From a virus: a stretch of DNA of 64,000 bases. Under the pieces are notes generated by a model. The model saw only the letters and a list, made by a program, of their open reading frames with translations, was not told where the DNA came from and did no database searches. The translations under genes were made by a program, and so were the position numbers. This document shows positions 12,917 to 64,000 of this stretch, one piece after another; positions within the stretch are counted from its first letter, which is position 1, and the number at the start of each line of letters is the position of its first letter. Location of the stretch: the IMG/VR virus record IMGVR_UViG_3300045988_066445, positions 1 through 64,000 of that record, one strand, 5' to 3'.

Positions 12917-12922
12917 CATAAT

Positions 12923-13805: not shown

Positions 13806-13811
13806 CTATAT

Positions 13812-13885: not shown

Positions 13886-13913
13886 CTTTAACTATTAATT
13901 AGATTAATTATTT

Positions 13914-14588: not shown

Positions 14589-14595
14589 CCAGGAT

Positions 14596-14667: not shown

Positions 14668-14674
14668 CTATGTA

Positions 14675-23090: not shown

Positions 23091-23303
23091 ATGGTCGAGA
23101 AAAACCTAATTAAGGCATTTATTGCCATAGTATTAGTTTTTGTAGCCTATAATATGGGACTGTGGTTATTATCTCAGTCCCTATGGGTTGCAAACCTTGG
23201 AGGACTATTGTTATTATTTATAGCAATTCCTAGTCTAGTCTATAGGACTATTAAACATTTCAAAAAACATTTTAAAAATAAAAAAGATGAAGACAATAAT
23301 TAA
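23091..23303 (+). CDS. small two-TM membrane protein
   Basis: Two hydrophobic helices. Overlaps the downstream SPFH gene start. Confidence 0.4.
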   Translation: MVEKNLIKAFIAIVLVFVAYNMGLWLLSQSLWVANLGGLLLLFIAIPSLVYRTIKHFKKHFKNKKDEDNN

Positions 23304-43960: not shown

Positions 43961-44135
43961 AATAGAAGAACTTATTACTGGAAACTTACACGAATTAGAG
44001 AATTTCCTTAATAATAAAGAAAAGGAAAACTATAGTGTAGTGAATATAATCATAAGTAAGACAAATAAAATGGTAACTCCTGGAGTTTCCATAGATATTC
44101 CAAAGTACATAATCATATTTAAATATCATGAGTAA
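43953..44135 (+). CDS. hypothetical small protein
   Basis: 60-aa ORF between nrdD and the phosphatase. Confidence 0.3.
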   Translation: MYKIEELITGNLHELENFLNNKEKENYSVVNIIISKTNKMVTPGVSIDIPKYIIIFKYHE

Positions 44136-44802
44136 AATACTTATAGTCCCAGACGTTCATGGGAGAAAATTTTGGAGAAAAGCACCAGAAACAATAAATA
44201 GTGTGGATAAGGTAGTCTTCCTAGGAGACTACCTAGATCCCTATCCTTGGGAAGGTATATCCAGACGAGATGCTATTAGCGAGTTTAAGGACATTATCGA
44301 ATTCAAGAGAAGCAATCCAGACAAGGTTATTTTATTATTAGGTAATCATGACTGTGCTTATTGTTTTGATTTTGGTAGTGCTTCTAGGTATGATTATGAG
44401 AATGAGTTTGAGATTAAATCTCTATTCAAGGAAAATATGGATATTTTTAGACTCTATTACAAGGAGGATAGGTATCTATTTTCTCATGCTGGGATTACTA
44501 ACGACTGGCTAAAAACTTACTTACCAGAGTATGATGCTGAAAGGTTTACTACCCTAACAACTAAAGAGTTGATTCCCTTCTTGTGGAAGGTTTCCTTTCA
44601 CAGGGGCGGTTACGATAATACTGGAAGTATTGTATGGAGTGATGTCAGGGAGGGAGATAGAGAATCAACATTCTATCAAATCTTCGGACACACTCAACTG
44701 GAAAAAGATCCTATTATTGATAATACTTATGCTTGCTTAGATGTAAGAAAGTGTTTTCTTTTAGATACAGAGGAAGGAACAATATTAGGAGACCATGATT
44801 AA
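44128..44802 (+). CDS. calcineurin-like metallophosphoesterase
   Basis: Motifs PDVHG, GDYLDP, GNHD, and GHT near the C-terminus. Confidence 0.6.
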   Translation: MSKILIVPDVHGRKFWRKAPETINSVDKVVFLGDYLDPYPWEGISRRDAISEFKDIIEFKRSNPDKVILLLGNHDCAYCFDFGSASRYDYENEFEIKSLFKENMDIFRLYYKEDRYLFSHAGITNDWLKTYLPEYDAERFTTLTTKELIPFLWKVSFHRGGYDNTGSIVWSDVREGDRESTFYQIFGHTQLEKDPIIDNTYACLDVRKCFLLDTEEGTILGDHD

Positions 44803-45919: not shown

Positions 45920-46223
45920 AAAATTTACTAATATCATTTGTGTTTATTACAATGATAAGAATTATATACCAGCTAAATATAATTGTCCAGACTTAGAAAT
46001 TGATGATGTAATTCTCAACCTGACTACAAATAAGGAGCAGAATTATGAGAAAATTTCTGAGATTATAGTTGATTATGCTTTTGCCTTGTTTTGTAATAAG
46101 TCAGATTTAAAAGACTTTGCACAAGACCATAAAAAGTACAAGAGGCAAAACTGGAAATTGCTGGATTTCAGAGAAATAATTAAAACCAATGAGATAACTA
46201 ATAAACAAAAAGATCCAAAATGA
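45912..46223 (+). CDS. hypothetical protein
   Basis: 103-aa ORF. Confidence 0.35.
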   Translation: MIRKFTNIICVYYNDKNYIPAKYNCPDLEIDDVILNLTTNKEQNYEKISEIIVDYAFALFCNKSDLKDFAQDHKKYKRQNWKLLDFREIIKTNEITNKQKDPK

Positions 46224-46774
46224 AATACGGAGTTATTCTAGCTAGATTTCAGCCCATTCATAATGGGCATCTAGCTTTGATTAAGAAAGCGTGTTCTGAG
46301 AATGATAAGGTTCTCTTGTTAGTTGGTAGCGCTAACAAAATAAGTAAACGTAATCCTATCCCTGTTAATATAAGGATAGAATTACTTAAGACTACCTTAG
46401 AGAATGAAAACTTACTAGAAAAATGTGTTATTCATTCCCTGAATGATTTGACTGATGAGACTGATAACTCTCAAGATTGGGGATTCTATTTATATGCTAA
46501 TATTGTTAGTATTATAAAAGAGTCCTCTTTTAATATCTACTATAGCGACGGATATGAAATCATTACCACATGGTTTCCTAAGTTCATGCTTAGAGATTAT
46601 ATATCTATGACTCTTATGGCTAGAGAACAGGTAGAAGAGGGAATATCAGCTACTACTGTTAGAAATGCCATAAGAAATGATCTAGACTTAGAAGGACTAG
46701 TTCCCAAATGTGTTATAGATGCCAAGTTTTATTTAAAAGAATTTATCTTACTCCATGAAAGTATCAATAATTAA
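46220..46774 (+). CDS. nicotinamide-nucleotide adenylyltransferase (NMNAT, NadM/NatV-like)
   Basis: [10 protein letters not shown] matches the (H/T)xGH nucleotidyltransferase motif. ISATTVR matches the ISSTxxR motif. Confidence 0.75.
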
Positions 46775-48281: not shown

Positions 48282-49481
48282 ATGATTAAATATTTATTAA
48301 GTAAAGCCTCAACTGGTAAATTTAGAGTTGCGTATTTGTCTACTACTGAGGAGTGGGATGAAGAAAAAGCTGGATTTGTAATTAACAGAGTTACTGGTCA
48401 GCTACATGGAAAGATGACAGAACAGCCTGAAATTGTTATTACGAAAGGTAAGGCAGGTAGAACTCACAGAGAACAACTTGAGTTGCAGTTTAAGTCTGAG
48501 CTTAAGAAATATTTAGATAAAGGTTACAAGGAAATGGAAAATGATCCGGAAACCTACAGTGAAACACAATTGGAGGAGTTTTATGGAGACATCAAGACGG
48601 ACCAGAATGGATTTGCAAAGCATATGCTTGCAAAATCTGCAGATAAGGTTAAAGAATCCTCAATCAATAAGGTCAAGTATTGGTATGCTAGCCGAAAAAT
48701 TGATGGAGTTAGGTGTTCCTTCTACTACAAGGATGGTGAGATTTTATCTGCTTCTAGGGGAGGGGGAAATTATGACTATTCAACAGGTCATATCAGAAGA
48801 AATAAGAAATTGCTTAAGTTCTTCGAATCTCATCCCGCTTACATACTTGATGGAGAGTTGTATAAACATGGTAAAAGCCTCCAACAAATCAGTGGAGCAG
48901 CTCGTCTTGAGAAGAACGCAGTTGACTGCGACTGGCTTGAATATTATGTTTACGACATCATGATTCCTGGAATGAAGTTCTCAGATAGATTAGAGATTCT
49001 TAAGCAGTTGCAAAAGGAGCTTAATCTTGGGTTTGACCCAAATAGAGAATGGGAAGAAGGAGAACTTCAAATGCAATTAGTTCCACAGGAGAAGGTTTCT
49101 GGATATGAAAATATAATGAAACTCCATGACCAGTATGTATCAGAAGGTTGGGAAGGAGTAGTATGTAGAAATCCTGATAAGGAGTATGGCTTCGGAAAAC
49201 GTACTAATGATATGCTTAAATTTAAATTCTATAAAGATGCAGAGTTTGAAATTACTGGCTTATCAGAAGGTCTTCGAGAAGAGGATATGTGTTTTACGTT
49301 GGTAACTGAAGACGGTATAGAATTTAAGGCTAAACCTATGGGTTCTAGGGAGCTTAAGCAACAGTATAGAGAAAGACTTAAAGAGCTTATTGGAAAGATG
49401 GCTACTGTTAAGTATTTCTACCTATCTGATGAGGGAACTCCACTACAACCTGTATTGAAATGTATTCGCGACTATGAGTGA
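48282..49481 (+). CDS. ATP-dependent DNA ligase
   Basis: Motif I KIDGVR, motif III-like LDGELY, motif IV EGVVCR, motif V LKFK. Confidence 0.75.
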   Translation: MIKYLLSKASTGKFRVAYLSTTEEWDEEKAGFVINRVTGQLHGKMTEQPEIVITKGKAGRTHREQLELQFKSELKKYLDKGYKEMENDPETYSETQLEEFYGDIKTDQNGFAKHMLAKSADKVKESSINKVKYWYASRKIDGVRCSFYYKDGEILSASRGGGNYDYSTGHIRRNKKLLKFFESHPAYILDGELYKHGKSLQQISGAARLEKNAVDCDWLEYYVYDIMIPGMKFSDRLEILKQLQKELNLGFDPNREWEEGELQMQLVPQEKVSGYENIMKLHDQYVSEGWEGVVCRNPDKEYGFGKRTNDMLKFKFYKDAEFEITGLSEGLREEDMCFTLVTEDGIEFKAKPMGSRELKQQYRERLKELIGKMATVKYFYLSDEGTPLQPVLKCIRDYE

Positions 49482-51303: not shown

Positions 51304-52671
51304 ATGAAGTTATCTAAGAGTAAAAGAGCCAACGTAAATTATTTGGCAAAGATTGTAGACATTAAGAATTTCAGAGCGCATAGTAATCCAGAGGTTACTA
51401 GACTTAAGTGTTGTACCATTGATGGTTTCAATATCATTACTGGGATTGACTCACAGCCTGGATTGTATGTATACTTTCCAACAGCCTGTTGCATAAATCC
51501 AGACTTTTTGAGGTATTGTAATCTATACCGCCATAAGGAATTAAATAACGACCCAGAACAAACTGGTATGTTTGAGGACAATGGTAGGGTAAAGGCTATC
51601 AGACTAAAGAATGAATTGTCTGAAGGATTTATTCTTCCAGTAGTTCAATTCCAGAACTATATAATGTCGGTGACTAATAAGGAGATTGATACTGAAGCAG
51701 GTACTGAATTTGATATTGTAGAACATGAAGGCAAGGAATTTTGGATTAACAAGAAATATATCCCGAAAAGACAGCAAGGACAAGGAGGAACTCCACGTAA
51801 CAACCAAACGAAGAAAGTCAAAGGAATCAGTAAAGTTATTGATGAACAATTTAGATTCCACTACGACACAACTCTTATTAAGAAATGTCCTAATGTGATT
51901 CATCCTAATGATTTGATTAGTATTACTGAGAAAATACATGGAACTTCTGGTATCTCAGCATATGTTTTGTGTAAGCAAGACTTAAATTGGAAACAGAAGA
52001 TTGCTAGATGGTTAACTAAGGAAGAGTTTAATAAATATGATTATCTCTACGCATCTAGAACCGTCATCAAGAATCAGTTCTACAACAAAAATGTTACTCC
52101 AGGATTTTATGGATGTGACGTTTGGGCAGAGGCTGACAAAATTGTTAAGCCGTGCTTGTCAAAAGGTATGACCGCGTATTATGAAATAGTAGGATTCTTA
52201 CCTAATGGTGGTTATATCCAGAAGAACTACGATTATGGATGTATGCCTCCAAAAGAGGGAGAGTCATATACTCACGAAAAGCATTTCAAGGTTCGTATCT
52301 ATCGTGTAACTATAACTAATGTAGATGGTGTAGTTCATGAGTTCTCTGCTCGCGAAGTTCAGCAATGGTGTGCCAAAGTTGGACTTATTCCAGTAGAGGA
52401 ATGGTATTACGGAACTGCAAAGTCTTTATATCCAGAACTCAATGAAGCTGAACATTGGAATGAAAACTTCATGGAGAAGCTAGCAAATGATACACAGTTC
52501 TATATGGAACGCAATTCTCCGTCTTGCGACAATAAAGTACCTCACGAAGGGATTGTTATCAAGATTGAGAATATGAAGTCAGAAGCCTTTAAGCTAAAAT
52601 GCTTTAAATTCCTTGATAAGGAAGGTAAGGAATTAGATAAGGGAGAAACTAATATTGAAGACGAAGCTTAA
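51304..52671 (+). CDS. ATP-dependent RNA ligase (Rnl2-like nucleotidyltransferase domain with a roughly 200-aa N-terminal extension)
   Basis: Motif I EKIHGTSG (KxHG), motif IV EGIVIKIEN, motif V FKLKCFKF. A separate DNA ligase exists at 48282. Confidence 0.55.
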   Translation: MKLSKSKRANVNYLAKIVDIKNFRAHSNPEVTRLKCCTIDGFNIITGIDSQPGLYVYFPTACCINPDFLRYCNLYRHKELNNDPEQTGMFEDNGRVKAIRLKNELSEGFILPVVQFQNYIMSVTNKEIDTEAGTEFDIVEHEGKEFWINKKYIPKRQQGQGGTPRNNQTKKVKGISKVIDEQFRFHYDTTLIKKCPNVIHPNDLISITEKIHGTSGISAYVLCKQDLNWKQKIARWLTKEEFNKYDYLYASRTVIKNQFYNKNVTPGFYGCDVWAEADKIVKPCLSKGMTAYYEIVGFLPNGGYIQKNYDYGCMPPKEGESYTHEKHFKVRIYRVTITNVDGVVHEFSAREVQQWCAKVGLIPVEEWYYGTAKSLYPELNEAEHWNENFMEKLANDTQFYMERNSPSCDNKVPHEGIVIKIENMKSEAFKLKCFKFLDKEGKELDKGETNIEDEA

Positions 52672-52673
52672 TT

Positions 52674-52961
52674 ATGCAGAAACTAGCTATAACATATGAG
52701 GTTACTATGTCTCAACATGCTGACATTGATATTGATGAAATAATTGAGGCAGTTATAACTAATCTTAAAGTCGAAGGGAAAGCTATAAACTTGGATTATT
52801 TAAGCTATGAATTTGAAGACAATGTAGGGTATTATTTAGAATCTCTCAATATGATAAATGATGCAAGCTTACTTAGTGAGTCTACTGTAGAAACAATTTG
52901 TGAAGCATTTCGCTATAGGGCTGCAAGAATACATCCTGAATATGCTGGAACGTCTATTTAG
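52674..52961 (+). CDS. hypothetical protein
   Basis: 95-aa ORF. Confidence 0.35.
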   Translation: MQKLAITYEVTMSQHADIDIDEIIEAVITNLKVEGKAINLDYLSYEFEDNVGYYLESLNMINDASLLSESTVETICEAFRYRAARIHPEYAGTSI

Positions 52962-53529
52962 TAAAAAGTATGGAAGTCTGTATTATAGGATTTCCTACTT
53001 TTTTCATAGTAAGATTCCGTTTATCTCTCCAGGGTGGAATGAGTATAGAAACCCTTGGTATCACTGGTGGAAGGTTAGAAAATATTTTAAATGTCCAAAG
53101 ACTCATTTCTTCTTTAGGAAAAACTTCTGGACATTTGGACTTCCAATCAGGAGAGACTACTATAACCCTATCCTAGACATAGGATTCCATGCATTAGGGT
53201 GGAAGGATAAATGGGATAGTCCGAGGCATGAATGGGACCCCATGATTTGCATAACCTTTTTCAGAACTTGGCATTTGTTATGGATATTTAACTGGGTAAT
53301 CGAAGAAGAAAAGAATAGTATTACAAAGAGCATGGCTACTTGGGAAGCTATCTTAGATTATTCCTACTATAACAAGACTATAGACCAAGCTATCGACAAC
53401 CATGTTTGGAGTTATGAAGAGGATAGTGAAAAGAAATATATAACTATTATTTCTAATATGACTAAAAAAGGATTAAAAGAATATGAACCCAAACACGCTG
53501 AAGAAAATACAGAGGTTGAAGAATGGTGA
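52900..53529 (+). CDS. hypothetical Trp/Tyr-rich protein
   Basis: 209-aa ORF overlapping the upstream gene. Confidence 0.35.
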   Translation: MKHFAIGLQEYILNMLERLFSKKYGSLYYRISYFFHSKIPFISPGWNEYRNPWYHWWKVRKYFKCPKTHFFFRKNFWTFGLPIRRDYYNPILDIGFHALGWKDKWDSPRHEWDPMICITFFRTWHLLWIFNWVIEEEKNSITKSMATWEAILDYSYYNKTIDQAIDNHVWSYEEDSEKKYITIISNMTKKGLKEYEPKHAEENTEVEEW

Positions 53530-53779
53530 GTCTTTTGTTACAAGCGAACCAGGAAATTCAATGCTACCTCTGTATAAGAGTAATGAGAAACATCTTGTCA
53601 CGCCTATAACTTGGCAAGAATGTAATATTGGAGATGTTGTATTCTGTAAGGTTAGAGGTTCCTGCGTCACTCACAAAGTATACGCAGTGGATTCTAACAA
53701 AGGATGCCTTATTGGTAATAACAAGGGGCATATGAACGGATGGACTAAGAATGTTTATGGTTTAGCACACAAATTATGA
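53483..53779 (+). CDS. hypothetical protein
   Basis: 98-aa ORF. Confidence 0.35.
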   Translation: MNPNTLKKIQRLKNGESFVTSEPGNSMLPLYKSNEKHLVTPITWQECNIGDVVFCKVRGSCVTHKVYAVDSNKGCLIGNNKGHMNGWTKNVYGLAHKL

Positions 53780-54471
53780 AAATATGTGTTTTGAGTGATT
53801 TGCATGGATTTCTAATTGATTATATTCAGCCATGCGAATTAGTGTTAATCTGTGGGGATATTGTGCCGTTAAGGATGCAAAGAAACAAACCACAGTGTGA
53901 AAAATGGCTAAAGACAGAATTTGCAGACTGGATAAAATCTCTTCCCTGTGAAAAGGTTGTATTTGTAGCCGGGAATCATGATTTTGTATTTGAGAATAGA
54001 GAGCTATTATGGATAAATTCTATAATTACTCATCCTACAGAAGGAAAAGCAATCTATTTAGAGAATCGCCATTGTGATTACTTAGGTAGTGAAGGAAGGG
54101 TATACAGAATATATGGAACACCAGCTTGCCACATATTTGGTAATTGGGCATTTATGTATTCCGATGAAAAGCTTCAAGAACTATACTCAAATATTCCAGG
54201 AAATTGTGATGTATTAATTAGTCATGATGCTCCTAAATTAAATAATTGCGGTTTGGTGCCTCCTAATATGTGGCATTCTGACCCTGTAGATGCTGGAAAC
54301 AGTGTCTTGGCTTCAGCAATCCTAGATAAGAAACCGAAATATGCTTTTTGTGGACATATCCATGAGGGAAATCACCAACTGACAGAAGCTGGTGAATCTA
54401 AGATTGCTAATGTATCTATACTTGATGATACCTACAGTATTAATTATGAACCTTTATATTTGGATATTTGA
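53776..54471 (+). CDS. calcineurin-like metallophosphoesterase (second copy, different subfamily)
   Basis: Motifs LSDLHG, GDIVP, GNHD and GHIHEG. Confidence 0.6.
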   Translation: MKICVLSDLHGFLIDYIQPCELVLICGDIVPLRMQRNKPQCEKWLKTEFADWIKSLPCEKVVFVAGNHDFVFENRELLWINSIITHPTEGKAIYLENRHCDYLGSEGRVYRIYGTPACHIFGNWAFMYSDEKLQELYSNIPGNCDVLISHDAPKLNNCGLVPPNMWHSDPVDAGNSVLASAILDKKPKYAFCGHIHEGNHQLTEAGESKIANVSILDDTYSINYEPLYLDI

Positions 54472-54604
54472 TACTATTCTTGTGTATTTATTTGGAGGAA
54501 TAGTATTGTTATTAGTAACAGTTGGAATTTATGAGATAATACAGGAGGAAACTAACTTCCTTAATGCCTACGGGTCTAGATTCATTTGCAATATTAAAAA
54601 TTAA
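54392..54604 (+). CDS. small membrane protein
   Basis: Hydrophobic 70-aa ORF. True start may be internal. Confidence 0.25.
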   Translation: MNLRLLMYLYLMIPTVLIMNLYIWIFDTILVYLFGGIVLLLVTVGIYEIIQEETNFLNAYGSRFICNIKN

Positions 54605-54851
54605 TCAAATGGAACAAGCTGTTTTTCAAAGAATGTTGGGAGAATTTAACGAGGTTAACGAACGTGCTACAAAACTAAGAGATTTTATTCTCAGTGATAA
54701 AAGCAAGGAGATTGATAATCTTAATCGCGACCTATTAATTGCTCAACTAAAAGCAATGGAGGCTTATGTATCTGTACTATCTATTCGTATAGGACTGAAC
54801 TCTCCTAAAGATGAAATACAAGAGGCAGAGATTGTAAAGGAAGGTGAATAA
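54564..54851 (+). CDS. hypothetical protein
   Basis: 95-aa ORF upstream of the sigma factor. Confidence 0.35.
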   Translation: MPTGLDSFAILKINQMEQAVFQRMLGEFNEVNERATKLRDFILSDKSKEIDNLNRDLLIAQLKAMEAYVSVLSIRIGLNSPKDEIQEAEIVKEGE

Positions 54852-55689
54852 AAAAATCATTTTCACAGACCGTTCGGACTCTCTACTAACTAGTTATCTC
54901 AAAGATATATCTAGGTATCCAATCCTAGATAGTGATGAGATAATTAGATTAATAGGAGAGGCTCAGAAAGGAGATGATATTGCTAGAGAAAAGATTATCA
55001 AATCAAATCTTAGATTTGTTGTAACTATTGCTAAGCAATTTCAGAATAGAGGTATTCCGTTGATGGATTTAATCTCTAGTGGAAATGAAGGTTTAATGAA
55101 AGCTATTGATAAGTTTGACCCTACTAAGGGAGTAACATTCTTATCTTATGCTGTATGGTGGATTAGGCAAAGCATTTATAATTCTATATATTGGCAGGCT
55201 AGAGAAATTCGCTTGCCAATGTCTCAGCAATTGCTAGTAATTAGCATTCTCGATGCAACTAATAAATTCTTACAATCACACGATAGAAATCCTAGCTCGG
55301 AGGAATTGTCCGAAATAACGGATATTCCAAGAGAGCAGATTGATTATCTAGCACAATTTTCTAATAAATTGGTTTCTGTTGATGATTTTATAGGAGGAGA
55401 TGAAGAGAACAGTCAGGTTTGTGATATTATTCCAGATGGAGAAGAACTCCTCGATGAGCAAGTAAACAAAAGCTATGTAACTAAAGAACTAGAGAATCTG
55501 TTATCTAAATTAACTATTAGAGAACATGATTTATTATGTATGTTATTTGGTATAGGAATGACTCCGGTTAATCCTAAGATTATAGCTGATATGTATGGTG
55601 TAGGGGGAGAAAGAATCAGACAGATGAAAGAAGGAGCATTAGCTAAACTAAGACGTAGATTTTCTAACCAACTTAAAAATTTATTATAA
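54844..55689 (+). CDS. RNA polymerase sigma-70 family factor (phage-encoded, regions 2, 3 and 4)
   Basis: Region 2 FVVTIAKQF...LMDLISSGNEGLMKAIDKFDP. Region 2.4 WWIRQSI. Region 4 IADMYGVGGERIRQMKEGALAKLRR. Confidence 0.8.
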   Translation: MNKKIIFTDRSDSLLTSYLKDISRYPILDSDEIIRLIGEAQKGDDIAREKIIKSNLRFVVTIAKQFQNRGIPLMDLISSGNEGLMKAIDKFDPTKGVTFLSYAVWWIRQSIYNSIYWQAREIRLPMSQQLLVISILDATNKFLQSHDRNPSSEELSEITDIPREQIDYLAQFSNKLVSVDDFIGGDEENSQVCDIIPDGEELLDEQVNKSYVTKELENLLSKLTIREHDLLCMLFGIGMTPVNPKIIADMYGVGGERIRQMKEGALAKLRRRFSNQLKNLL

Positions 55690-56012
55690 TGAAATTAGAG
55701 GAAATTTTACCAGCATTGCGCAGAGGAGAAGTAGTAAGAAGAGGAGTCTTTCAAAGTAGCCTTGTAGTATTTATGCAAATTCCTGCAGAAATTCCTGCAC
55801 AGGATGTCTTGAAGATGAAATCTATACCTATCCAAATGAAGGTTCTTATGGGAGAGTATGAAGCTGGGGTTACTTATCATGACCAGTTTATAATGTATGA
55901 CTTTTCAGACCAAAGTTGTACATACTATCCCTTTGATGGAGAAGATATGAATGCAGATGATTGGGAATTGATTGACCCTATGTCATACGACCCTTATGAG
56001 GACTTTCGATAA
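55689..56012 (+). CDS. hypothetical protein
   Basis: 107-aa ORF with ATGA overlap to the sigma factor gene. Confidence 0.35.
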   Translation: MKLEEILPALRRGEVVRRGVFQSSLVVFMQIPAEIPAQDVLKMKSIPIQMKVLMGEYEAGVTYHDQFIMYDFSDQSCTYYPFDGEDMNADDWELIDPMSYDPYEDFR

Positions 56013-56259
56013 TTATCCAGTAGGAGCAGCTGACGATCCTAGAGCACCCTATAACGAACCATTAGCAAGAAATGTTAAGGTAGAAGTAGGAGTTGAACTA
56101 GGGACAATGGTAGATATTGAAGTAGTTGGAGACCTCTCAGAGGACATAATGCAAGAGTTGGTTAAAGATAAAGTTATCGAAAAACTGAATATAGATAATG
56201 AGGATATTGTCCTTAATGATATAACAATCTATAGTCACGATGATTTATCTAGTAAGTAG
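55972..56259 (+). CDS. hypothetical acidic protein
   Basis: 95-aa ORF. Confidence 0.3.
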   Translation: MTLCHTTLMRTFDNYPVGAADDPRAPYNEPLARNVKVEVGVELGTMVDIEVVGDLSEDIMQELVKDKVIEKLNIDNEDIVLNDITIYSHDDLSSK

Positions 56260-58678
56260 AAATAAAACTCTCTTTCGCCCTGAGAAGTATCAACATATTC
56301 CTTTTGAGGAGGCAATGGATTTTCTGTTGCCTTTGAAAAGGGTTCAATTTGATACTGAGACTATGGGTCTTGATGCTCATACTAAAGATTTATTAACTGT
56401 TCAACTTGGAAATAGAGATAACCAAGTTGTATTCGATTGGACTACCCTAACAGAATGTGAAAAAAGATCTTTAAAGGACTATCTAGAATCTGGAGTACTA
56501 GTTATTGGAGTTAATCTAATGTTTGACTTGTGCTTTATGTATGTTCAAGGTATATATCCTAAGAAGATATATGACATAATGTTGGCTGAACAACTAATCT
56601 ATTTAGGATATCCGAAGATTATAACTAATGAGCTGTATAATGAACTTGGGGTAGAACTTCCAGGATACGAGTTTATACAAGAGGCAGGGAAACTTCCTTA
56701 TTATGAGCTTAGTTATTCTTTGAAAGCTATGGCTAAGAGGTATCTTAATATAGACATTGATAAAACAGTCCGAGGCAAAATTATAAATGATGGTCTTACT
56801 GAGGATGTGATTGTTTATGCTGCTGGAGATGTCATGTATCTGGAGGACATTCTAGATAAGCAGATGGAGGAACTTAAGCTTCAAGACCTAGTTTTGGCCG
56901 CAGAGTTTGAGTGCGAGTTTGCTAAATCCTTAGCTTATGTTAAACATTGTGGAGTTCATCTTGATGTTGCTAAATGGAAAAACAAGATGGCTAAAGATTT
57001 ACTTAAACTCAAGACATCTGAGCAAGAGTTGAATGATTGGGTAGTAGAGTGGGATTCTAAAAGAGTTAAGAACGGAGATTGGGATATTCGTTATCCAGAA
57101 ATGGATTATGATAAGCCTGATGATATAGCAGAGGAGGAAAGAAGATTATTAAAGGATAAGTATGTACGCTCTCCAAAAGATGACCTAGAAGTGCCTTATC
57201 AGAGCTTAAAATTGAAAGCTTATAAGAAGAAGGTATCAAGTCTATTTACCAAGATAGATTTGCAAGGAGACCTATTTTCTGGTTTTAATGATAAACCACA
57301 GTGTGTTATAAATTGGAGTAGTTCTAAACAAGTAATCAAACTGTTCGAAGTCTTAGGCATTGAAGTTGATACTTTTGATAAAAAGACGAAGAAGAAAAAG
57401 AAGTCCGTTGAGGCTAAAATGCTTAAGCCTCAAAAGGATAAGTTTCCTATTATCCCTATTTATTTGAGGTATCAGGAAGCTGCAAAGGTGGTTTCTACCT
57501 ATGGAGAAAACTGGCTAAAGGCAATAAACCCTAAAACTGGAAGAGTCCATGCAGACTTGCACGTAATAGGAACTGATACAAGTAGAATATCATCTGGAGG
57601 AGGTCCTTACAAAGTGAATGTGTTGAATCTCCCTAGAGATAAGGAGACTAGAGCGTGCTTTACCTCAGAGAAAGGTAATCTATGGGTTTCTTGTGATTAT
57701 ACTGGACAGGAAAGTGCTATTACTGCCTCCGTATCTAATGACCAGAAGATGATTAATATTCTTGAGTCTGGAGGAGATATGCATAGTGAAGTAGCAAAAA
57801 TGTGCTGGCCCGATCTTCTTGGAAAATTAACTGTTGAAGAAGTTAAAACCAAGTATAAGGGACACAGACAAGATGCGAAAGCTGTTGAATTTGCTATTTT
57901 CTATGGAGGTGATGATAATACTTTACACGTCAATAGTGGGTTTGACAAGAAGGATGCAAAGAACATTTATGATAACTTTATGAAGGGTTTTTCTGGAATT
58001 GCAGAATACCAGGACTATTGTAGAAAAGCAGTAATGCGAAATGGGTATATCCTAATGAATCCTATAACTAAGCATAGAGCACACATATTTGACGCAAAGT
58101 GGATGTTCAAAATGCAGGAAAAATTCAAGGAGGATGGATATTGGGAATATTATAGAGAAATGAAGCGTGATGCTCCAAGCTGCGATACTGTCCAACAAGT
58201 AACTAGATATTTCAGAAGGAAGTCAGACTCCGAAAAGCAATCTATTAATTATAGGATTCAGAATAGAGGCGCAATGGCTTTTAAGCTAGCAATGATAAAG
58301 CTATTTAATTGGATTATGAATAATAATTTAATTGATATTGTTCTCTTATGTGTTACTCCGTATGATGAGATAAATTTGGAATGTCCAGAATCTATAGCAG
58401 AAGATATGGCTAATGTTCTAGTTAAATGTTTAGCTGATGGAGGAAAGCCATTCTGTACTAGAGTACATCTTGGAGCTGACGTAGCTAGAATGTCCAAATG
58501 TCATACTAATTTCAGTGTAGCAGATAAAGTTATAATGGAGAATGGTGATGTTGTGGATTGTTTAGATGGAGTATTTTATAATATAACTAAGAATACTACG
58601 TATCCAGAGTCTGAGGTAAAAGGGTATAAGGATTACATTGAAGCTGATGGACCTTTGCCTAATTATTGGATTCATTAA
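56240..58678 (+). CDS. polA: DNA polymerase I (family A) with N-terminal 3'-5' exonuclease domain
   Basis: Exo I VQFDTETMGLD. Pol motif A CDYTGQESAI. Motif B RQDAKAVEFAIFYG. Motif C TPYDEINLE. Confidence 0.9.
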   Translation: MIYLVSRNKTLFRPEKYQHIPFEEAMDFLLPLKRVQFDTETMGLDAHTKDLLTVQLGNRDNQVVFDWTTLTECEKRSLKDYLESGVLVIGVNLMFDLCFMYVQGIYPKKIYDIMLAEQLIYLGYPKIITNELYNELGVELPGYEFIQEAGKLPYYELSYSLKAMAKRYLNIDIDKTVRGKIINDGLTEDVIVYAAGDVMYLEDILDKQMEELKLQDLVLAAEFECEFAKSLAYVKHCGVHLDVAKWKNKMAKDLLKLKTSEQELNDWVVEWDSKRVKNGDWDIRYPEMDYDKPDDIAEEERRLLKDKYVRSPKDDLEVPYQSLKLKAYKKKVSSLFTKIDLQGDLFSGFNDKPQCVINWSSSKQVIKLFEVLGIEVDTFDKKTKKKKKSVEAKMLKPQKDKFPIIPIYLRYQEAAKVVSTYGENWLKAINPKTGRVHADLHVIGTDTSRISSGGGPYKVNVLNLPRDKETRACFTSEKGNLWVSCDYTGQESAITASVSNDQKMINILESGGDMHSEVAKMCWPDLLGKLTVEEVKTKYKGHRQDAKAVEFAIFYGGDDNTLHVNSGFDKKDAKNIYDNFMKGFSGIAEYQDYCRKAVMRNGYILMNPITKHRAHIFDAKWMFKMQEKFKEDGYWEYYREMKRDAPSCDTVQQVTRYFRRKSDSEKQSINYRIQNRGAMAFKLAMIKLFNWIMNNNLIDIVLLCVTPYDEINLECPESIAEDMANVLVKCLADGGKPFCTRVHLGADVARMSKCHTNFSVADKVIMENGDVVDCLDGVFYNITKNTTYPESEVKGYKDYIEADGPLPNYWIH

Positions 58679-58814
58679 CGAATAAGGGGCTATAGTAGTG
58701 ATGCCAAACCTGAGCCCCTGAGTAGGCTTAAGAACAATCAGCCGAACAGCCATCCTTGTAATGAGGTAGGAGTGCAGTTAGGGCATCATTTTTAATTCTA
58801 ATTTAAGTACTTAT

Positions 58815-59096
58815 ATGAAAAAATTATTAATTTTATTGATTACAGTGTTAGCTTTGTGTACTGCGTGTGCAGATAGTAAAACCTTTGAGAGAGCAGACGG
58901 AACTAAGTTCGTTGCCGAACCATATGGATGGGCAAATTATCAATCTAAGAAGATTGAAGGAGTAACATATGAAGCATGTTTTGAGAACATTGTTTGGGAT
59001 ATTGTTGCTATAGAAACCGTAATTGTTCCAGTATGGTTAACTGGCTGGGAATTGTACGAACCAGTTTCTTATACCGAACCAAATGTTACTAAGTAA
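58815..59096 (+). CDS. lipoprotein
   Basis: Signal MKKLLILLITVLALCTACAD with a lipobox. Confidence 0.45.
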   Translation: MKKLLILLITVLALCTACADSKTFERADGTKFVAEPYGWANYQSKKIEGVTYEACFENIVWDIVAIETVIVPVWLTGWELYEPVSYTEPNVTK

Positions 59097-59243
59097 TTAT
59101 GGATACTTATACACCAATGAGAGCTATGATTGTCTGTGCTAATGGCACAGGCGATTATATAAAGAAAGAGGATGCAATTAAGGCTTTACAAAATATTTTT
59201 GAAGAAGATTCTCAGAAAATAATAGAAGTTTTTTTAAAAGAAT

Positions 59244-59600
59244 TTGGATATGAAGATACAACTACCGGAACTTGATGTAATAAGCTGTAATGGCTCTTGG
59301 ACGGGTTTAATCTTAAAGAAACATCTTACATTCGACGAAGCTCGTTTTATTGCAGCATCAGCATTAGGAGTAAACATGGATTTACTCTTAGATGATTGGT
59401 GGGCAAGAAGTATTGATGGGGAAGACGATATTAAGGATGAAATTGATGATTTTACTAATGATGTAGAAGGGCTTCTTACTGGTGAAAATACTTGGGATTA
59501 TTTTACTAATAGGTGGACTTTAGAGGAGGGCCTAGAGGACATATGCCCTACAATGTTTCTCCAAATGGTTTATGAAGCTAATTATTTAGGCTTATTATGA
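59244..59600 (+). CDS. hypothetical acidic protein
   Basis: 118-aa ORF. Confidence 0.35.
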   Translation: MDMKIQLPELDVISCNGSWTGLILKKHLTFDEARFIAASALGVNMDLLLDDWWARSIDGEDDIKDEIDDFTNDVEGLLTGENTWDYFTNRWTLEEGLEDICPTMFLQMVYEANYLGLL

Positions 59601-60067
59601 AAGTAATTTTCTTAGATATTGATGGAGTCTTGAATAGTAATGATTGGTATGTCAAGACTCGTGGTGTTGGAGGATACAATGGAGGAGACGTTGATCCAGA
59701 ATGTATTGAGCTTATAAATGATTTAATAGATGCTACTGGGGCTAAAATAATTATGTCTTCATCATGGAGGTCTGATTATGAAAATTCTTGTGAATATTTG
59801 TATGACAATGGCTTATATTGTGATGCAATTATAGGAAAGACTCCACACTTCTGCTATACTTGTCAGAATGACGATATCAGAAGCACACTTTGTAGAGGAA
59901 ATGAAATACAATACGTATTAGAGTCAGAGGATATAACTAATTATGTTATCTTTGACGATGATCAGGACATGCTATATTCCCAGAAGGATAATTTTATCCA
60001 TATAGATTATATGCATGGTATTACGAAAGAACATATTGAACAAGCAATTAAAATATTAAACAAATGA
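59597..60067 (+). CDS. HAD-superfamily phosphatase
   Basis: N-terminal motif I FLDIDGVLN (DxDGV). Confidence 0.5.
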   Translation: MKVIFLDIDGVLNSNDWYVKTRGVGGYNGGDVDPECIELINDLIDATGAKIIMSSSWRSDYENSCEYLYDNGLYCDAIIGKTPHFCYTCQNDDIRSTLCRGNEIQYVLESEDITNYVIFDDDQDMLYSQKDNFIHIDYMHGITKEHIEQAIKILNK

Positions 60068-60288
60068 CTGTAGATTTTATAACAACAGAAGTATTAACTG
60101 ATGACCAAATTCTTAGAGGGTTTGGTGAGACACTATGTTATGGAGAAGGTAAGTTTACTGAAAATGACTTCTTTGAGTCCATTGGAAGTTCTTTAGATAC
60201 CTATGGATCATGCATGACAGAATCCTCAAAGGGAGAAGTTATTAAACAATTAAAGGTATTACTAACTAAACTATTAGAGGAACTATGA
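60064..60288 (+). CDS. hypothetical protein
   Basis: 74-aa ORF. Confidence 0.3.
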   Translation: MTVDFITTEVLTDDQILRGFGETLCYGEGKFTENDFFESIGSSLDTYGSCMTESSKGEVIKQLKVLLTKLLEEL

Positions 60289-60683
60289 GTAGTTATTTAA
60301 ATATATATGGAGTTCCGAAAGAAGGAGAGCCAATAAAGATTGTTAGCTTTAGTAGGTCACATTGTGTATATTCTCCATTCTGCGATACCCTAAATATAGC
60401 ATGGGCGGGAGAAAACAAAGTCTACACAGACTTAACTACAAGCGACGTAGAGCAAGTTATTAAAGATATAAGCTCTGATTTGAAAAGTGCTAATAGTAGA
60501 TTGCAAATATATGAAAAGTATGCTTCTCAAAATCCTGAATATATTCAGGAAATTATAAGTCTGCAAGAATATATTGAGGAGCTTAACACTACTATACATT
60601 ATTGTGAAATGATAGGTATTATAGTGATGCACAGCTCTTTGTCTTTTTCGGGATTTAGTAAAATCTGCTGTAATATATCATGA
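60285..60683 (+). CDS. hypothetical protein
   Basis: 132-aa ORF. Confidence 0.35.
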   Translation: MSSYLNIYGVPKEGEPIKIVSFSRSHCVYSPFCDTLNIAWAGENKVYTDLTTSDVEQVIKDISSDLKSANSRLQIYEKYASQNPEYIQEIISLQEYIEELNTTIHYCEMIGIIVMHSSLSFSGFSKICCNIS

Positions 60684-60874
60684 GATTTAAGTTAGAATTT
60701 ACATTTGATATTTCTGACAGCTCACTGCTGATAGATGCCAATGACGGTAGAGATGAGGAATACACTAGCCTAGAAGATGTACCAGAGGATACTCTAATGG
60801 ATGTAGTATACCATTATTTAGATGGGGTTGTAGAAGGTATGACTTACGATGAAGTAACAATTAAGAAATTATGA
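60680..60874 (+). CDS. hypothetical acidic protein
   Basis: 64-aa ORF. Confidence 0.3.
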   Translation: MRFKLEFTFDISDSSLLIDANDGRDEEYTSLEDVPEDTLMDVVYHYLDGVVEGMTYDEVTIKKL

Positions 60875-61188
60875 AAAGGTTTCTAATACATGTTAGCACC
60901 TACTGGTGTGGAATGGACGACACATTTAGAGCAGTTGCGGAAGATGAGACTCAACTATGGGATCTAGCCGAAGAGCTAGCTTATCAAAATTTCCAGTCCT
61001 ATGGGCTAGATGAAGAAATAGCTGAAGACCAGGGATATAACCCAGATGAAATGTCAGAGGAGGACTGGGATAAGATGTGGGGTGAAGTAGACGAATCTGC
61101 TTACTACAGTCATAGTATTGAGGAATTTGACGGTAATAGTACAGAGTGGGAAGAATACGGAGGAGAGGTATATGGAAGAGAAGGTTAA
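60871..61188 (+). CDS. hypothetical highly acidic protein
   Basis: 105-aa ORF, Glu/Asp-rich. Confidence 0.35.
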   Translation: MKRFLIHVSTYWCGMDDTFRAVAEDETQLWDLAEELAYQNFQSYGLDEEIAEDQGYNPDEMSEEDWDKMWGEVDESAYYSHSIEEFDGNSTEWEEYGGEVYGREG

Positions 61189-61648
61189 ATTCTATGATAG
61201 AGAAGAACTAGACTCTAAGGATATACTGGAACTTATTAGAATATGGGAAGGTGGAGCTGGAGAATCATTTACTGATTACTGCTGCTTTCAGCGTCAAAGT
61301 GATGCAGACTTTCTAACCTTTCTAAGTATTTGGTATGAACCTCTATATGATTACTGTGTCAATCGTATAGTAGAGGAAGGTGGTAATTACTTAGAGTATA
61401 CTATACAGTATGTAGCAGATTACTGTGTAGATTATTATACTAGTTGGATTCCTGGGGATAACCCCGAGTTCTGGGATAAATCCTATGAAATAGGAATGTA
61501 CCCATTGGCACATTTTATAAAGAAGAATGACCTAGCTTGGAAAGCATTTGTGGAGTTTTTCACAGATACTGATAATACATGCTCTGGGACTCCCTATATT
61601 GATTGTTACAACATTAGAAAACAGTTTGAAGATGACAGAAAGTTTTAA
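61173..61648 (+). CDS. hypothetical protein (start set to the first Met after the upstream stop region)
   Basis: In-frame Met (MEEKVKFYD...) inside track ORF 61118..61648. Confidence 0.35.
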
Positions 61649-62375
61649 ATTTTATGAAGTAGGTGGTAAGATACGTGATGAACTCCTTGGATTAAAGTCC
61701 AAGGATGTTGATTATGTTGCTGTACCCACCAATGAATTGTTATATAAAGATTACACTGCCGAAGAAATGTTTAAACTTCTTTATGCTGACTTGGCGATGG
61801 AGAAGTTTGAAATCTTCTTAGTAACCCCAGAGTGCTATACTATACGTGCTAAATTCCCAGAGGGGTACAAGTATCAAGGTGTAGCGGACTTTGTAATGGC
61901 AAGAAAGGAAGTGAGCTATCCTCCAGGTACTAGAATTCCAATTGTACAACCGGGTAATCTTTATGATGATTTATCTCGTAGAGATTTCACTGTTAATGCA
62001 ATGGCTAAAGACCCTGATACTGGTGAGATTATTGACTACTTCGGTGGTATGGAGGATTTAAGAAACAGAGTATTGATGACTCCTTTAGACCCTCTTACAA
62101 CCCTTGATGATGACCCTTTGAGAGTACTTAGAGGAGTAAGGTTTGCTATTACTAAGGGTTTCGTTATACCAAAAGACCTAATGTATATTATCCAACATTA
62201 TCCTTATAAGCATAAAATGTATGTAGTCTCAGAGGAGAGAATAAGGGAGGAACTCACTAAGTGCTTCAAGTGTAACACCATTGAAACCTTAGAGTTCTTG
62301 CATGAGATTCCCAGACTTAGAGATTATATATTCGAGAGGACTAATCTATGGTTAAAGCCGACTAACGAGAAATAA
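61632..62375 (+). CDS. tRNA nucleotidyltransferase (CCA-adding enzyme / poly(A) polymerase head domain), minimal form
   Basis: FYEVGGKIRDELLG...KDVDYVAV matches GGxVRDxLLG...DxD. RRDFTVNAMA matches the RRDFTINA motif. Confidence 0.7.
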   Translation: MTESFKFYEVGGKIRDELLGLKSKDVDYVAVPTNELLYKDYTAEEMFKLLYADLAMEKFEIFLVTPECYTIRAKFPEGYKYQGVADFVMARKEVSYPPGTRIPIVQPGNLYDDLSRRDFTVNAMAKDPDTGEIIDYFGGMEDLRNRVLMTPLDPLTTLDDDPLRVLRGVRFAITKGFVIPKDLMYIIQHYPYKHKMYVVSEERIREELTKCFKCNTIETLEFLHEIPRLRDYIFERTNLWLKPTNEK

Positions 62376-62377
62376 AT

Positions 62378-62602
62378 ATGTATTGTATCTTATCTAATGC
62401 AAGACTTTCTAAGGAATTGAAGAACTTCCCAATAGTTAGAGAAGTTTCTTTTACTGATATAACAGAAATTAGGAAGCATACCGGCTTAGGTGTTTATCTA
62501 TGTAAGCTTTTAGCTCAGCGAAGCAAAAGTGTAGAGGAAGCAACGGATTTATTAAACAAATCGCTTTTAAATATTGAAAATGGAAGAATACAAAATACCT
62601 AG
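62378..62602 (+). CDS. hypothetical protein
   Basis: 74-aa ORF. Confidence 0.3.
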   Translation: MYCILSNARLSKELKNFPIVREVSFTDITEIRKHTGLGVYLCKLLAQRSKSVEEATDLLNKSLLNIENGRIQNT

Positions 62603-62930
62603 TGATTATGAACTTGATGGATTAGCTGAAGACTACGTCTGTTCTTTAAATGATGAAGATCTGCCTGTACTAGAGGAAGAATTAACCGAAGAATGTTTAA
62701 GGGAATTCCTTAACGATAGAGGATATGAGTTTGTAGAAGAGCAAAGAGATAACTTTATAAACTATATACTGTATAGCTCTGATGCTAGCTATGAGCGGAT
62801 GCGCGAGGATGCAAAACAAAACTTTAGAGATTCTTTAGAAGAAGTTATAGAATCTGCAGATGATATATTATCTAATGAAGATAAACTAAAGATTATAATC
62901 TCAGTTACTAATTACAATTTTGGTGATTAA
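62574..62930 (+). CDS. hypothetical acidic protein
   Basis: 118-aa ORF. Confidence 0.35.
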   Translation: MKMEEYKIPSDYELDGLAEDYVCSLNDEDLPVLEEELTEECLREFLNDRGYEFVEEQRDNFINYILYSSDASYERMREDAKQNFRDSLEEVIESADDILSNEDKLKIIISVTNYNFGD

Positions 62931-63219
62931 AATGGTTGATCAAGAAAGTCTTTACAGAAAGGCTATTGTTTGCTATGGATTTCCTGCCCAAGCTGCCATG
63001 ATGGTAGAAGAATGTAGTGAACTAACTAATGCTATCTGCAAATTTAGAAGAGGTAGAGTTAATGAGGACGATATTATAACTGAAATTGCTGATGTTATGA
63101 TTATGTGCGAACAAATGGCTGCTTACTTTGGTAAGGATAAAGTAGCTTTAGAAAAAGAAAATAAATTAGAAAGATTAGAAGAACGTTTAGCTAAATACGA
63201 ATGGGAACAAGAAAATTAA
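62920..63219 (+). CDS. MazG-like nucleotide pyrophosphohydrolase (small single-domain form)
   Basis: VEECSELTNAI...EIADVMIMCEQ matches the MazG EExxE...E/D helix pair. Confidence 0.5.
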   Translation: MVIKMVDQESLYRKAIVCYGFPAQAAMMVEECSELTNAICKFRRGRVNEDDIITEIADVMIMCEQMAAYFGKDKVALEKENKLERLEERLAKYEWEQEN

Positions 63220-64000
63220 TTATTTGTAGAGGAATACAAGGCTCAGGTAAATCTACTTGGGCTAAGCAGTGGTGTCATGAAGATCCAAAGCATAGAGTAA
63301 GGTTTAACAACGATGATATTCGTAATATGTTAGGAGATTACTGGGTTCCGGATAGAGAAAAGTTAGTAACAGAAGCTAAGGCGAATATGATTACATTTGC
63401 TTTAATTACCGGATATGATGTAGCAGTAGACAATATGAATCTTAATCCCAAGGAAGATACGTGGATTAGAACTCTATGTACTAATATAGAAAAGGATAAA
63501 GGAATTCATATTGATATAGAATATAAAGACTTTTTCATACCAGTTGAAGAATGTATTCGTCGTGATGCTATGAGGCCTAATCCTATTGGAGAAAAAGTTA
63601 TTAAAGATACTTGGAGACGTTACAGAACTTTTATAATTCAGCAAAACATTAATGAAATGCTAAGCAAACGTCCAGAGCATGTAGACGGGGCACGTCCTGC
63701 TATATTGGTTGATATGGATGCTACCTTATGTCTAAATACTACTGGTAGACCGTATTACGGTGAGGGTGCTGCCGAAGGTATGTTAAATGATATAGCAGTG
63801 GAAGGAATATGCAACCTTGTAAAATCTCTATATGAGAAACGTACCATATTTATCATTACAGGTAGAGAAGGAACTCCAGAAATTATAGAAGCTACTAAAA
63901 AGTGGTTAGACTCAAACAGTATCAAGGTTGATGGTTTATTCTTCCGACCAGTAAAGGACTACAGTCCTGGAGCTGAGTGCAAGAAGAAAATCTATGAGGA
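63211..64000 (+). CDS. pnk: polynucleotide kinase / 3'-phosphatase (T4 Pnk-like), partial; continues beyond the window
   Basis: N-terminal P-loop kinase ICRGIQGSGKSTWA. Downstream HAD phosphatase motif I ILVDMDATL and motif II FIITGR. Start overlaps the upstream stop. Confidence 0.75.

Follow-up and report, generated by a model that had tools for sequence, protein, structure and literature searches.

A predicted RNA-repair and tRNA 3'-end kit, with an Rnl5-like RNA ligase and a short CCA-type nucleotidyltransferase, beside the tRNA array of a human-gut phage

The 64 kb that open a metagenomic contig of 178,602 bp (IMG/VR record IMGVR_UViG_3300045988_066445, positions 1 to 64,000; hereafter the window) carry, beside a large array of tRNA genes, a set of genes for the healing, sealing and 3'-end rebuilding of RNA. 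The set includes a T4-type polynucleotide kinase/phosphatase (Pnkp), a stand-alone HAD phosphatase, an ATP-dependent RNA ligase and a short nucleotidyltransferase of the CCA-adding type. We consider it likely that these genes form an accessory toolkit by which tRNA-like RNAs stay usable in the course of infection. The evidence is of gene identity, domain architecture, catalytic motifs, conservation and recurrent co-location. A reading of the window from its letters alone (the sequence-only reading) had proposed such a kit from five open reading frames (ORFs), those of the ligase, the HAD phosphatase, the CCA enzyme, a MazG-like protein and Pnkp. All five are present on the plus strand at or within a few bases of where they had been placed, and profile searches in independent libraries (Pfam, PHROG and NCBIfam among them) back the proposed functions. 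The kit is larger than first described, with a Thg1-like gene, a candidate 2H phosphoesterase and a tmRNA gene added. Its members, with the neighbours that travel with them, are as follows.

107-14668, plus strand: 19 tRNA genes interspersed with small ORFs (ARAGORN 17, Rfam 2)
5212-5622, plus strand: candidate minimal 2H phosphoesterase (2',3'-cyclic phosphodiesterase type), 136 amino acids (aa), inside the tRNA array
12402-12919, plus strand: tmRNA gene (ARAGORN tag peptide VQQKDDRATVLNLKAKG; Rfam RF00023, 64.5 bits against a gathering score of 47, E = 7e-23)
51304-52671, plus strand: ATP-dependent RNA ligase of Rnl5 (DraRnl/NgrRnl) architecture, 455 aa (PHROG, TIGR02306, profile against the PDB, AlphaFold (AF2)/Foldseek)
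59597-60067, plus strand: stand-alone HAD phosphatase from HAD_SAK_2 (PF18143), the 'Swiss Army Knife' family of RNA-repair phosphatases
60285-60683, plus strand: conserved 132-aa ORF that travels with the CCA-enzyme and Pnkp genes (49%-identical homologue in phage MT835470, L102 11804-12202)
61632-62375, plus strand: mini class II tRNA nucleotidyltransferase (CCA-adding type), 247 aa, head plus neck (PF01743, phrog_24229)
62920-63219, plus strand: MazG-like all-alpha nucleoside triphosphate pyrophosphohydrolase (phrog_2245, E = 4e-29; PF03819, 19.1 bits against a 22-bit cut-off)
63201-64000, plus strand: T4-type bifunctional polynucleotide 5'-kinase/3'-phosphatase (Pnkp), first 266 of 304 codons (AAA_33 and HAD_PNKP)
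Contig 65585-66373 (L010 13954-14742), outside the window: Thg1-like protein, 262 aa (PF04446, phrog_4717)

In the mechanism that we propose, Pnkp would convert 5'-OH to 5'-phosphate ends and strip 2',3'-cyclic or 3'-phosphates, with the HAD_SAK protein and the candidate 2H phosphodiesterase giving extra or back-up healing of 3' ends. The Rnl5-like ligase would adenylylate itself at K210 (K210-AMP) and then join the healed 3'-OH and 5'-phosphate ends. The mini CCA enzyme would build or rebuild the 3' termini of some 28 phage tRNAs, of the tmRNA, of damaged host tRNAs and of tRNAs stripped of their CCA tail, and the Thg1-like enzyme would restore 5' ends. The tRNA array would supply replacement tRNAs, and the tmRNA would rescue stalled ribosomes. 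The selective reason would most likely be to counter host immune systems or toxins that cleave tRNAs in the anticodon loop or at the CCA tail, with boosted maturation of the phage's own tRNAs as a secondary role. Host systems that attack the anticodon loop or the CCA tail of tRNAs have been described (PMC7824862; PMC13594972), and Cas12a3 immunity is one that cleaves CCA tails (PMC13594972). Large phages are known to combine tRNAs, RNA ligases, PNK-HAD and SAK-HAD proteins, a CCA-adding enzyme and Thg1, and the concept of such a kit is already published (PMC7824862).

End-healing enzymes, tRNA genes and their 3' ends

Pnkp has the P-loop GIQGSGKST in its AAA_33 kinase domain and the motif DMDATL in its HAD_PNKP phosphatase domain, matches phrog_505 (E = 1e-44) and aligns end to end with Pnkp1 (PDB: 4xrp, E = 8e-25) and T4 Pnk (PDB: 1ltq, E = 5e-15). 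The sequence-only reading had identified it correctly and had set its start at 63211; the gene starts at 63201. It ends at contig position 64115, beyond the window, and the full 304 aa were read from the same contig, COST17-1_SAMEA4545336_METAG-scaffold_35 (178,602 bp; locus L010), which is 100% identical to the window across the 12,369 bases that they share.

The stand-alone HAD phosphatase scores far over the HAD_SAK_2 cut-off (94.8 bits against 27.5, E = 7.5e-27), matches phrog_1818 (E = 7e-35) and carries motif I as DIDGV in the sequence MKVIFLDIDGV; homologues lie near the ligase in the gut phage MT835470 and in the Prevotella megaphage Lak-B5. The ORF at 5212-5622 matches tRNA_lig_CPD, the fungal tRNA-ligase cyclic phosphodiesterase (PF08302, E = 2e-7, 31.1 bits against 23), over residues 47-118 only. 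It has the two HxT motifs HCTL and HITI and is conserved in three related contigs (L097-L099). A PHROG search gave no match to this ORF and a sequence search of the PDB none to it or to the HAD_SAK ORF, and the 2H assignment is tentative since it lacks both kinds of match. The Thg1-like gene, for a predicted 3'-5' nucleotidyltransferase, lies 1.5 kb downstream of Pnkp on the same contig (PF04446, E = 1e-30, 106.8 bits against 29.2; Thg1C, 29.7 against 26.3; phrog_4717, E = 9e-93). A role for it in adding G-1 to the phage tRNA-His is unsupported, because G-1 is already genome-encoded (tRNA-His in L097).

Two further ORFs belong to the neighbourhood. The MazG-like ORF overlaps the start of Pnkp by 19 nt and is found upstream of Pnkp in both CCA-allele backgrounds described below; it is absent at that position in MT835470, and its link to RNA repair is positional only. 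The 132-aa ORF at 60285-60683 has no Pfam or PHROG match. Its homologue in MT835470, an unrelated gut phage, sits between the CCA-enzyme and Pnkp genes, and it may be an unrecognised component of the kit.

The tRNA array extends upstream of the window start in related contigs by eight more genes (Arg, Lys, Pro, two Tyr, His, Ser and one with a CUA anticodon), which brings the total to about 28. As the sequence-only reading had noted, none of the window tRNA genes encodes CCA; this follows from an analysis of their 3' flanks, with the 3' ends placed via the T-loop and acceptor stem. The same analysis refines the claim. Position 74 is C and is followed by A or T in all 28 genes (19 window tRNAs, the tmRNA and the eight upstream tRNAs), which has a probability of about 3e-24 by chance given that C makes up 14.5% of the strand. 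These well-formed tRNA genes and the tmRNA gene are short of C75-A76 and not of the entire CCA. T is the usual letter at position -1. The tmRNA gene lies 3 nt upstream of a tRNA-Ile gene and ends in A73-C74-A, so that addition of C75-A76 (or of CCA) would be needed. C74 as a peculiarity of this phage was considered and rejected: the pattern recurs in about 20 of the 23 tRNAs of Bacteroides phage crAss001, and cyanophage B23 has T74 in 13 of 13. It looks like a host-clade-specific signature of 3' processing. Depending on the site of precursor cleavage, C75-A76 may consequently be all that the CCA enzyme has to add.

The C74 signature, an OmpA-like protein encoded in the window, and the affinities with Lak (Prevotella) and Cellulophaga phages suggest that the host is probably Gram-negative and most likely one of the Bacteroidota. 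The better match of Pnkp to Pnkp1, the Capnocytophaga enzyme, is a further clue to such a host. The upstream tRNAs span L097 1609-9672. The gene with the CUA anticodon, at L097 1609-1680, is called 'Pyl' by ARAGORN and is of the amber-suppressor type, which hints at TAG recoding in part of the genome.

The absence of C75-A76 from every tRNA and tmRNA gene would also fit a kit that is mainly housekeeping, maturing and maintaining the roughly 28 tRNAs and the tmRNA, by 3'-end addition and clean-up of 5' ends, for late translation rather than countering defence. CCA-adding and Thg1-like enzymes are classical maturation enzymes, and the CUA-anticodon tRNA hints at reliance on phage tRNAs. However, normal bacterial tRNA maturation needs no Pnkp, HAD_SAK phosphatase, 2H phosphoesterase or ligase; the tRNA-His already encodes G-1; and the CCA enzyme has been lost in one natural strain (L001). 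In crAss001, a 50-kb stretch holds 23 tRNA genes with like CCA-less ends and no annotated CCA enzyme, a statement about the annotation to which no separate test with the CCA-enzyme protein was added. We regard a mainly housekeeping role as rather unlikely. The earlier claim that the phage carries everything needed to mature its own tRNAs is too strong: neither RNase P nor RNase Z was found, strain L001 has neither the CCA enzyme nor MazG, and crAss001 has CCA-less tRNA genes with no such enzyme annotated.

A head-plus-neck nucleotidyltransferase of the CCA-adding type

The ORF at 61632-62375 matches the PolyA_pol head domain (PF01743, E = 3e-19) and, over its full length, phrog_24229 'tRNA nucleotidyltransferase' (E = 9e-65). 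Motifs A to E are present as GGKIRD...DVD, RRDFTVNA, DYFGGMEDL, DDPLRVLRGVRF and SEERIREEL, with DDPLR present. The protein covers positions 2-218 of the 409-position E. coli CCA profile, and the profile of its own family aligns to approximately the N-terminal 55-60% of solved CCA- and A-adding enzyme chains (396-420 aa). As the alignments are limited to the N-terminal part of both, the enzyme consists of a head and a neck, with no body or tail domain. It shares motifs A-E of head and neck, and with them the protein template for CTP/ATP selection, with the CCA-adding enzymes of class II from B. stearothermophilus, T. maritima and E. coli and the A-adding enzyme of A. aeolicus. Unlike them, it has no counterpart of some 160 C-terminal body and tail residues, closes on a NLWLKPTNEK-like end and is acidic (pI 5.3).

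The sequence-only reading had described a 247-aa head domain with a minimal neck and had named it a candidate for novel biochemistry. The architecture stands, and the enzyme is no one-off. The best 120 database relatives are all 244-270 aa long, and annotated genes of like length occur in cultured phages (Cellulophaga phage phi4:1 gp032, 244 aa; Microbacterium phage Big4 gp255, 248 aa; Synechococcus phage B23 gp209, 243 aa), so that the family as a whole spans 243-270 aa. In an alignment of the cultured-phage and gut-phage enzymes the catalytic residues are invariant throughout, and the sequences end at one place with a common C-terminal motif, NLWLKPTNEK in the window protein. By sequence, then, the short enzyme is a conserved and already annotated phage family, and its truncation is no accident of the window genome. 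Literature searches found no paper characterizing the family. A split enzyme, made of this ORF and an upstream 158-aa ORF with which it is fused into one 407-aa ORF in contig L005, was considered and rejected. The two are joined by one frameshift, present in a single assembly, and the 158-aa ORF, whose product is very acidic (pI 4.25), is wholly absent in L003; a split enzyme is therefore unlikely.

The missing domains raise the alternative that the 247-aa protein is a relaxed tailing enzyme that adds poly(A), poly(C,A) or single nucleotides, perhaps marking host RNAs for decay or modifying phage RNA. In class II enzymes that have been studied, body and tail bind the acceptor and T helices, with the tail as the anchor of the tRNA elbow (PMC3925840). 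The window protein misses all NCBIfam CCA equivalog cut-offs (the best score is 100 bits against 290 for PRK13299), and PcnB scores nearly as well (90.9 bits). Swaps of the C-terminal region between a CCA-adding enzyme and a poly(A) polymerase reportedly alter specificity (Betat and colleagues, 2004). Against this, conservation of the kind found in CCA- and A-adding enzymes extends to the templating motif D (DDPLRxLR), to motif B (RRDFTVNA) and to the loop in front of motif B. Those enzymes match the family profile better (E = 2e-35) than does the poly(A) polymerase of E. coli (E = 1e-18); this check of the earlier assignment places the ORF closest to class II CCA/A-adding enzymes and does not refute it. 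The gene is also linked to Pnkp and to tRNAs. A tailing enzyme of this kind is in our view improbable.

An RNA ligase of Rnl5 architecture and its gene neighbourhoods

Along its entire length the ligase matches phrog_968 'RNA ligase' (E = 1e-39); it matches the Pfam RNA_ligase model weakly (20.9 bits, under the 27-bit cut-off). An OB-like module at approximately residues 1-150 is followed by a flexible linker (~152-175) and the nucleotidyltransferase domain (~176-455), with the motifs TEK210IHG, S251R252, E294, E415GIVIK and K430/K432. K210, G213, E294, E415, G416 and K430 are invariant across 77 diverse homologues. The sequence-only reading had called the N-terminal 200 residues an unrecognised domain. 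Residues 26-140 match NCBIfam TIGR02306, the model built on the Deinococcus RNA ligase DRB0094 (E = 1e-5), and both the profile and the structural comparisons below identify the segment, by sequence and predicted model, as the Rnl5-type OB-like module.

A profile built from the 77 homologues finds NgrRnl as its best PDB match (E = 4e-8) and T4 Rnl2 second (9e-6). Its hidden Markov model alignment pairs the N-terminal domain with NgrRnl residues 7-110 and puts motifs I, IV and V in register with NgrRnl K170, E312 and K326. The family profile alone reaches significance; the single ligase sequence does not (E = 0.3). An AlphaFold model computed from the diverse 77-sequence alignment has a mean pLDDT of 94, while an earlier one from 15 close homologues (74-84% identity) had a pLDDT of 38 and was unusable. 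With the later model, the best 13 Foldseek matches in the PDB are all NgrRnl and cover both domains (E = 5e-13, TM 0.53-0.69, 0.69 on the target). REL1 and Rnl2 follow at ~3e-7 and Rnl1 at 4e-5 (TM 0.25), the Rnl1 structures matching the nucleotidyltransferase core only, and DNA ligases lie above 0.04. Profile and fold searches thus place the protein among the RNA ligases and not among DNA ligases or capping enzymes.

The DraRnl/NgrRnl (Rnl5) clade is set apart by an OB-like module at the N terminus, by TEKxHG as motif I and by an end soon after motif V with no C-terminal domain (PMC1807946). All are present in the window ligase. Its chain continues for 40 aa beyond E415 of motif IV, against about 30 aa as the mark of the clade, and for 23 aa beyond K432, with no C-terminal domain, and the model shows one helix only after motif V. 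Domain order, motif I (as in DraRnl), the early end and the full-length fold are thus shared with the Rnl5 ligases; the differences are a length of 455 against ~340 aa, a longer linker with insertions, and an identity of only ~15%. With some 115 residues more than the solved enzymes and a score far under the TIGR02306 equivalog cut-off (24.5 against 151 bits), the ligase is a member of a divergent, mostly phage-borne clade with Rnl5 architecture and no orthologue or equivalog of them. The clade is large, with at least 2,004 clusters at 50% identity in an exhaustive search, and most of the listed members are full length (430-470 aa). A search for related loci with 11 of the ligase sequences returned close relatives only (66-100% identical).

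The architecture bears on the comparison with T4, whose Pnkp and Rnl1 repair PrrC-cleaved tRNA-Lys and were held up by the sequence-only reading as the model for this phage. Both phages combine a bifunctional T4-type Pnkp with an ATP-dependent RNA ligase. The window ligase, in contrast, has an N-terminal OB module and no C-terminal tRNA-specificity domain, and its gene is 10.5 kb from that of Pnkp. Given its Rnl5 module, it resembles a family whose characterized members are nick-sealing and is not an analogue of the anticodon-loop specialist Rnl1; the analogy is functional at best.

From 58815 to the end of Pnkp, the ORFs overlap or are separated by gaps of a few bases, and the string includes HAD_SAK, the CCA enzyme, MazG and Pnkp, which are probably co-expressed given this arrangement. 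The ligase stands apart from the string. In MT835470, a different 117-kb gut phage whose DNA polymerase A (PolA) is 43% identical to that of the window, the order is DNA ligase, Rnl5-like ligase (54% identical), three small ORFs, CCA enzyme (70%), the 132-aa homologue (49%), a small ORF and Pnkp (70%); ligase, CCA enzyme and Pnkp all fall within 4.7 kb. In Lak-B5, a Thg1-like gene is 2.7 kb and HAD_SAK 18 kb from the ligase homologue (53%). Mycobacterium phage CicholasNage has a polynucleotide kinase 3.4 kb from a homologous 'RNA ligase' (29% identity over 98% of the length), in a region that adjoins NAMPT and is near tRNAs. Two distant relatives are counter-examples: one (L093) has replication genes alone around it, and the other, carried by a contig of 204 kb, has a cREC domain and RtcB no more than 9 kb away. 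The clustering of the kit genes is beyond chance, for three other phage lineages hold subsets of these families close together, and the recurring association favours a joint function in RNA repair. A calcineurin-like metallophosphoesterase gene (53776-54471), 1.1 kb downstream of the ligase, likewise has a homologue in MT835470 (44% identical).

The position of the ligase in the window invites a different assignment, in which it is a replication or DNA-repair enzyme acting on ribonucleotide-terminated nicks (RNA primers, embedded ribonucleotides) and only HAD_SAK, the CCA enzyme, MazG, Pnkp and Thg1 act on RNA. It lies in a replication module with a sigma factor, between the ATP-dependent DNA ligase (48282-49481) and DNA polymerase A (56240-58678), and the only recognisable neighbours of the ligase of a distant relative (L093) are DNA ligase, PolA and a sigma factor. 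Characterized Rnl5 enzymes seal nicks in duplexes that have an RNA 3'-OH strand (PMC4408790, PMC1807946, PMC5397189), joining it to 5'-phosphate RNA or DNA, and loss of DraRnl sensitizes Deinococcus to ionising radiation (PMC1807946, PMC5397189). Yet the phage already has a separate DNA ligase. In MT835470 the RNA ligase is followed by the CCA enzyme within 1 kb and by Pnkp within 2.4 kb, and the actinophage ligase next to Pnkp and tRNAs and the Lak-B5 ligase next to a Thg1-like gene point the same way. We judge a purely replicative ligase unlikely.

Several points nevertheless weigh against an accessory RNA-repair toolkit. The 10.5 kb between ligase and Pnkp, and the replication neighbours of the ligase both here and in L093, are among them. 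The physiological role of Rnl5 enzymes has been called uncharted (PMC4408790, PMC5397189), and they are not known to mend breaks in anticodon loops. The tRNA specificity of the CCA enzyme is not assured, as it has neither body nor tail and is acidic. We know of no established role for MazG in RNA repair. Every enzymatic activity, the substrates and the counter-defence role are predicted from family membership. Among contigs with an identical ligase, strain L001 is without the CCA enzyme and MazG, and strain L002 is without HAD_SAK; two alleles each of the CCA enzyme (247 and 254 aa, ~67% identical) and of PolA (812 and 729 aa, ~63%) circulate in these strains (L001-L012). From the natural strains that do without some of the genes it follows that the kit is accessory and its parts dispensable, as expected for counter-defence genes.

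That the work of the kit falls to two uncharacterized enzyme families is a more tentative proposal, which we think less likely than not. In it, the phage-specific ~245-aa CCA enzyme, made of head, neck and a conserved WLKPT tail, would recognise tRNA and tmRNA 3' ends without a body and tail anchor and might complete C74-ending precursors with C75-A76 alone, and in tRNA repair the large Rnl5-like phage clade would serve Pnkp as its dedicated partner for sealing. If so, the former would be the smallest natural class II CCA-type enzyme, with a new mode of tRNA recognition, and the latter would give the Rnl5 architecture its first clear physiological role.

A merely coincidental grouping of early-region nucleotide-metabolism genes with no joint function, which the interspersed unrelated genes (sigma factor, PolA, Tad2-like, metallophosphoesterase) and the mosaic gene content of the strains might suggest, is very unlikely in view of the co-location of the same families in four unrelated phage lineages and of the single string of overlapping ORFs that holds HAD_SAK, the CCA enzyme, MazG and Pnkp.

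Known systems, the phage and other genes of the window

The closest published counterparts of the kit are the toolkits of jumbo phages (Iyer et al., 2021, PMC7824862), which likewise hold tRNAs, an ATP-dependent RNA ligase, a kinase-PNK-type HAD protein, a stand-alone SAK HAD protein, a CCA-adding enzyme, sporadic Thg1 and 2H phosphoesterases, and for which the same rationale, the undoing of host attacks on tRNA, was given. They differ in that the window phage is an uncultivated gut phage of ~180 kb, below the jumbo threshold, and in that most of their ligases are Rnl1 or Rnl2, whereas the window ligase is neither. Neither RlaP nor RtcB was seen in the stretch of this phage that was examined. 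Rare divergent actinophage ligases outside Rnl1 and Rnl2 were recorded in the same survey (PMC7824862). The pair of Pnkp and 'RNA ligase' in CicholasNage (gp72, gp83) shares with the window a ligase of the same family, in CicholasNage 3.4 kb from the kinase, and the company of NAMPT and tRNAs. It differs in having no CCA enzyme, Thg1 or HAD_SAK in the 13-kb stretch examined and in infecting a host of another phylum. The Pnkp enzymes of mycobacteriophages Omega and Cjw1 are said to have been characterized by Zhu, Yin and Shuman in 2004.

Two modest additions are made here: ligases of this divergent kind share the Rnl5 architecture and recur in linkage with Pnkp, and the CCA enzyme is a conserved head-plus-neck mini family. 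Neither overturns current understanding, and the kit as a concept is already known. Two compact and conserved proteins come with the locus, a 455-aa Rnl5-like RNA ligase with a high-confidence model and a ~245-aa CCA-type nucleotidyltransferase; the latter could be of use as a reagent and could indicate the minimum of protein that recognition of a tRNA 3' end requires.

In an assembly collection, 109 indexed blocks contain the exact ligase sequence and 182 the exact CCA-enzyme sequence, on contigs that are mostly 50-200 kb and typically 130-190 kb long; the phage is an abundant human-gut phage of ~180 kb. A megablast search of the region against GenBank phages gave two short matches only. All real genes of the window lie on the plus strand, and its G+C content is 36%. 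Besides the kit, the window encodes an OmpA-type beta-barrel protein, NAMPT, an NMNAT-like protein, RNase H, DnaB, primase, NrdD, an ATP-dependent DNA ligase, a sigma-70-family factor, DNA polymerase A, a Tad2-like protein and a crAss001_48-like protein. The features among these and their neighbours that were located are listed below.

968-2926 and 23287-24111: early-region proteins with an SPFH/Band 7 domain (652 and 274 aa)
21833-22849: OmpA-family protein with an outer-membrane beta-barrel domain
25243-26931: NAMPT (NAD+ salvage), counter-defence candidate
46220-46774: NMNAT-like cytidylyltransferase-fold protein (NAD+ salvage), counter-defence candidate
44128-44802 and 53776-54471: two calcineurin-like metallophosphoesterases
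54564-54851: crAss001_48-related protein, counter-defence candidate
55689-56012: Tad2-like protein (anti-Thoeris domain), counter-defence candidate

The early region would thus stack counter-defence functions, with tRNAs and tmRNA, RNA repair, NAD+ salvage and a Tad2-like protein side by side, which suggests that gut bacteria often attack translation and NAD+ during infection.

In distant relatives, core genes are interrupted. The DNA polymerase A gene of L093 is split by a LAGLIDADG-type ORF (5521-8312), and the matches to NrdD in Lak-B5 fall into four separated pieces (L103 34655-40982), which suggests inteins or introns in both genes.

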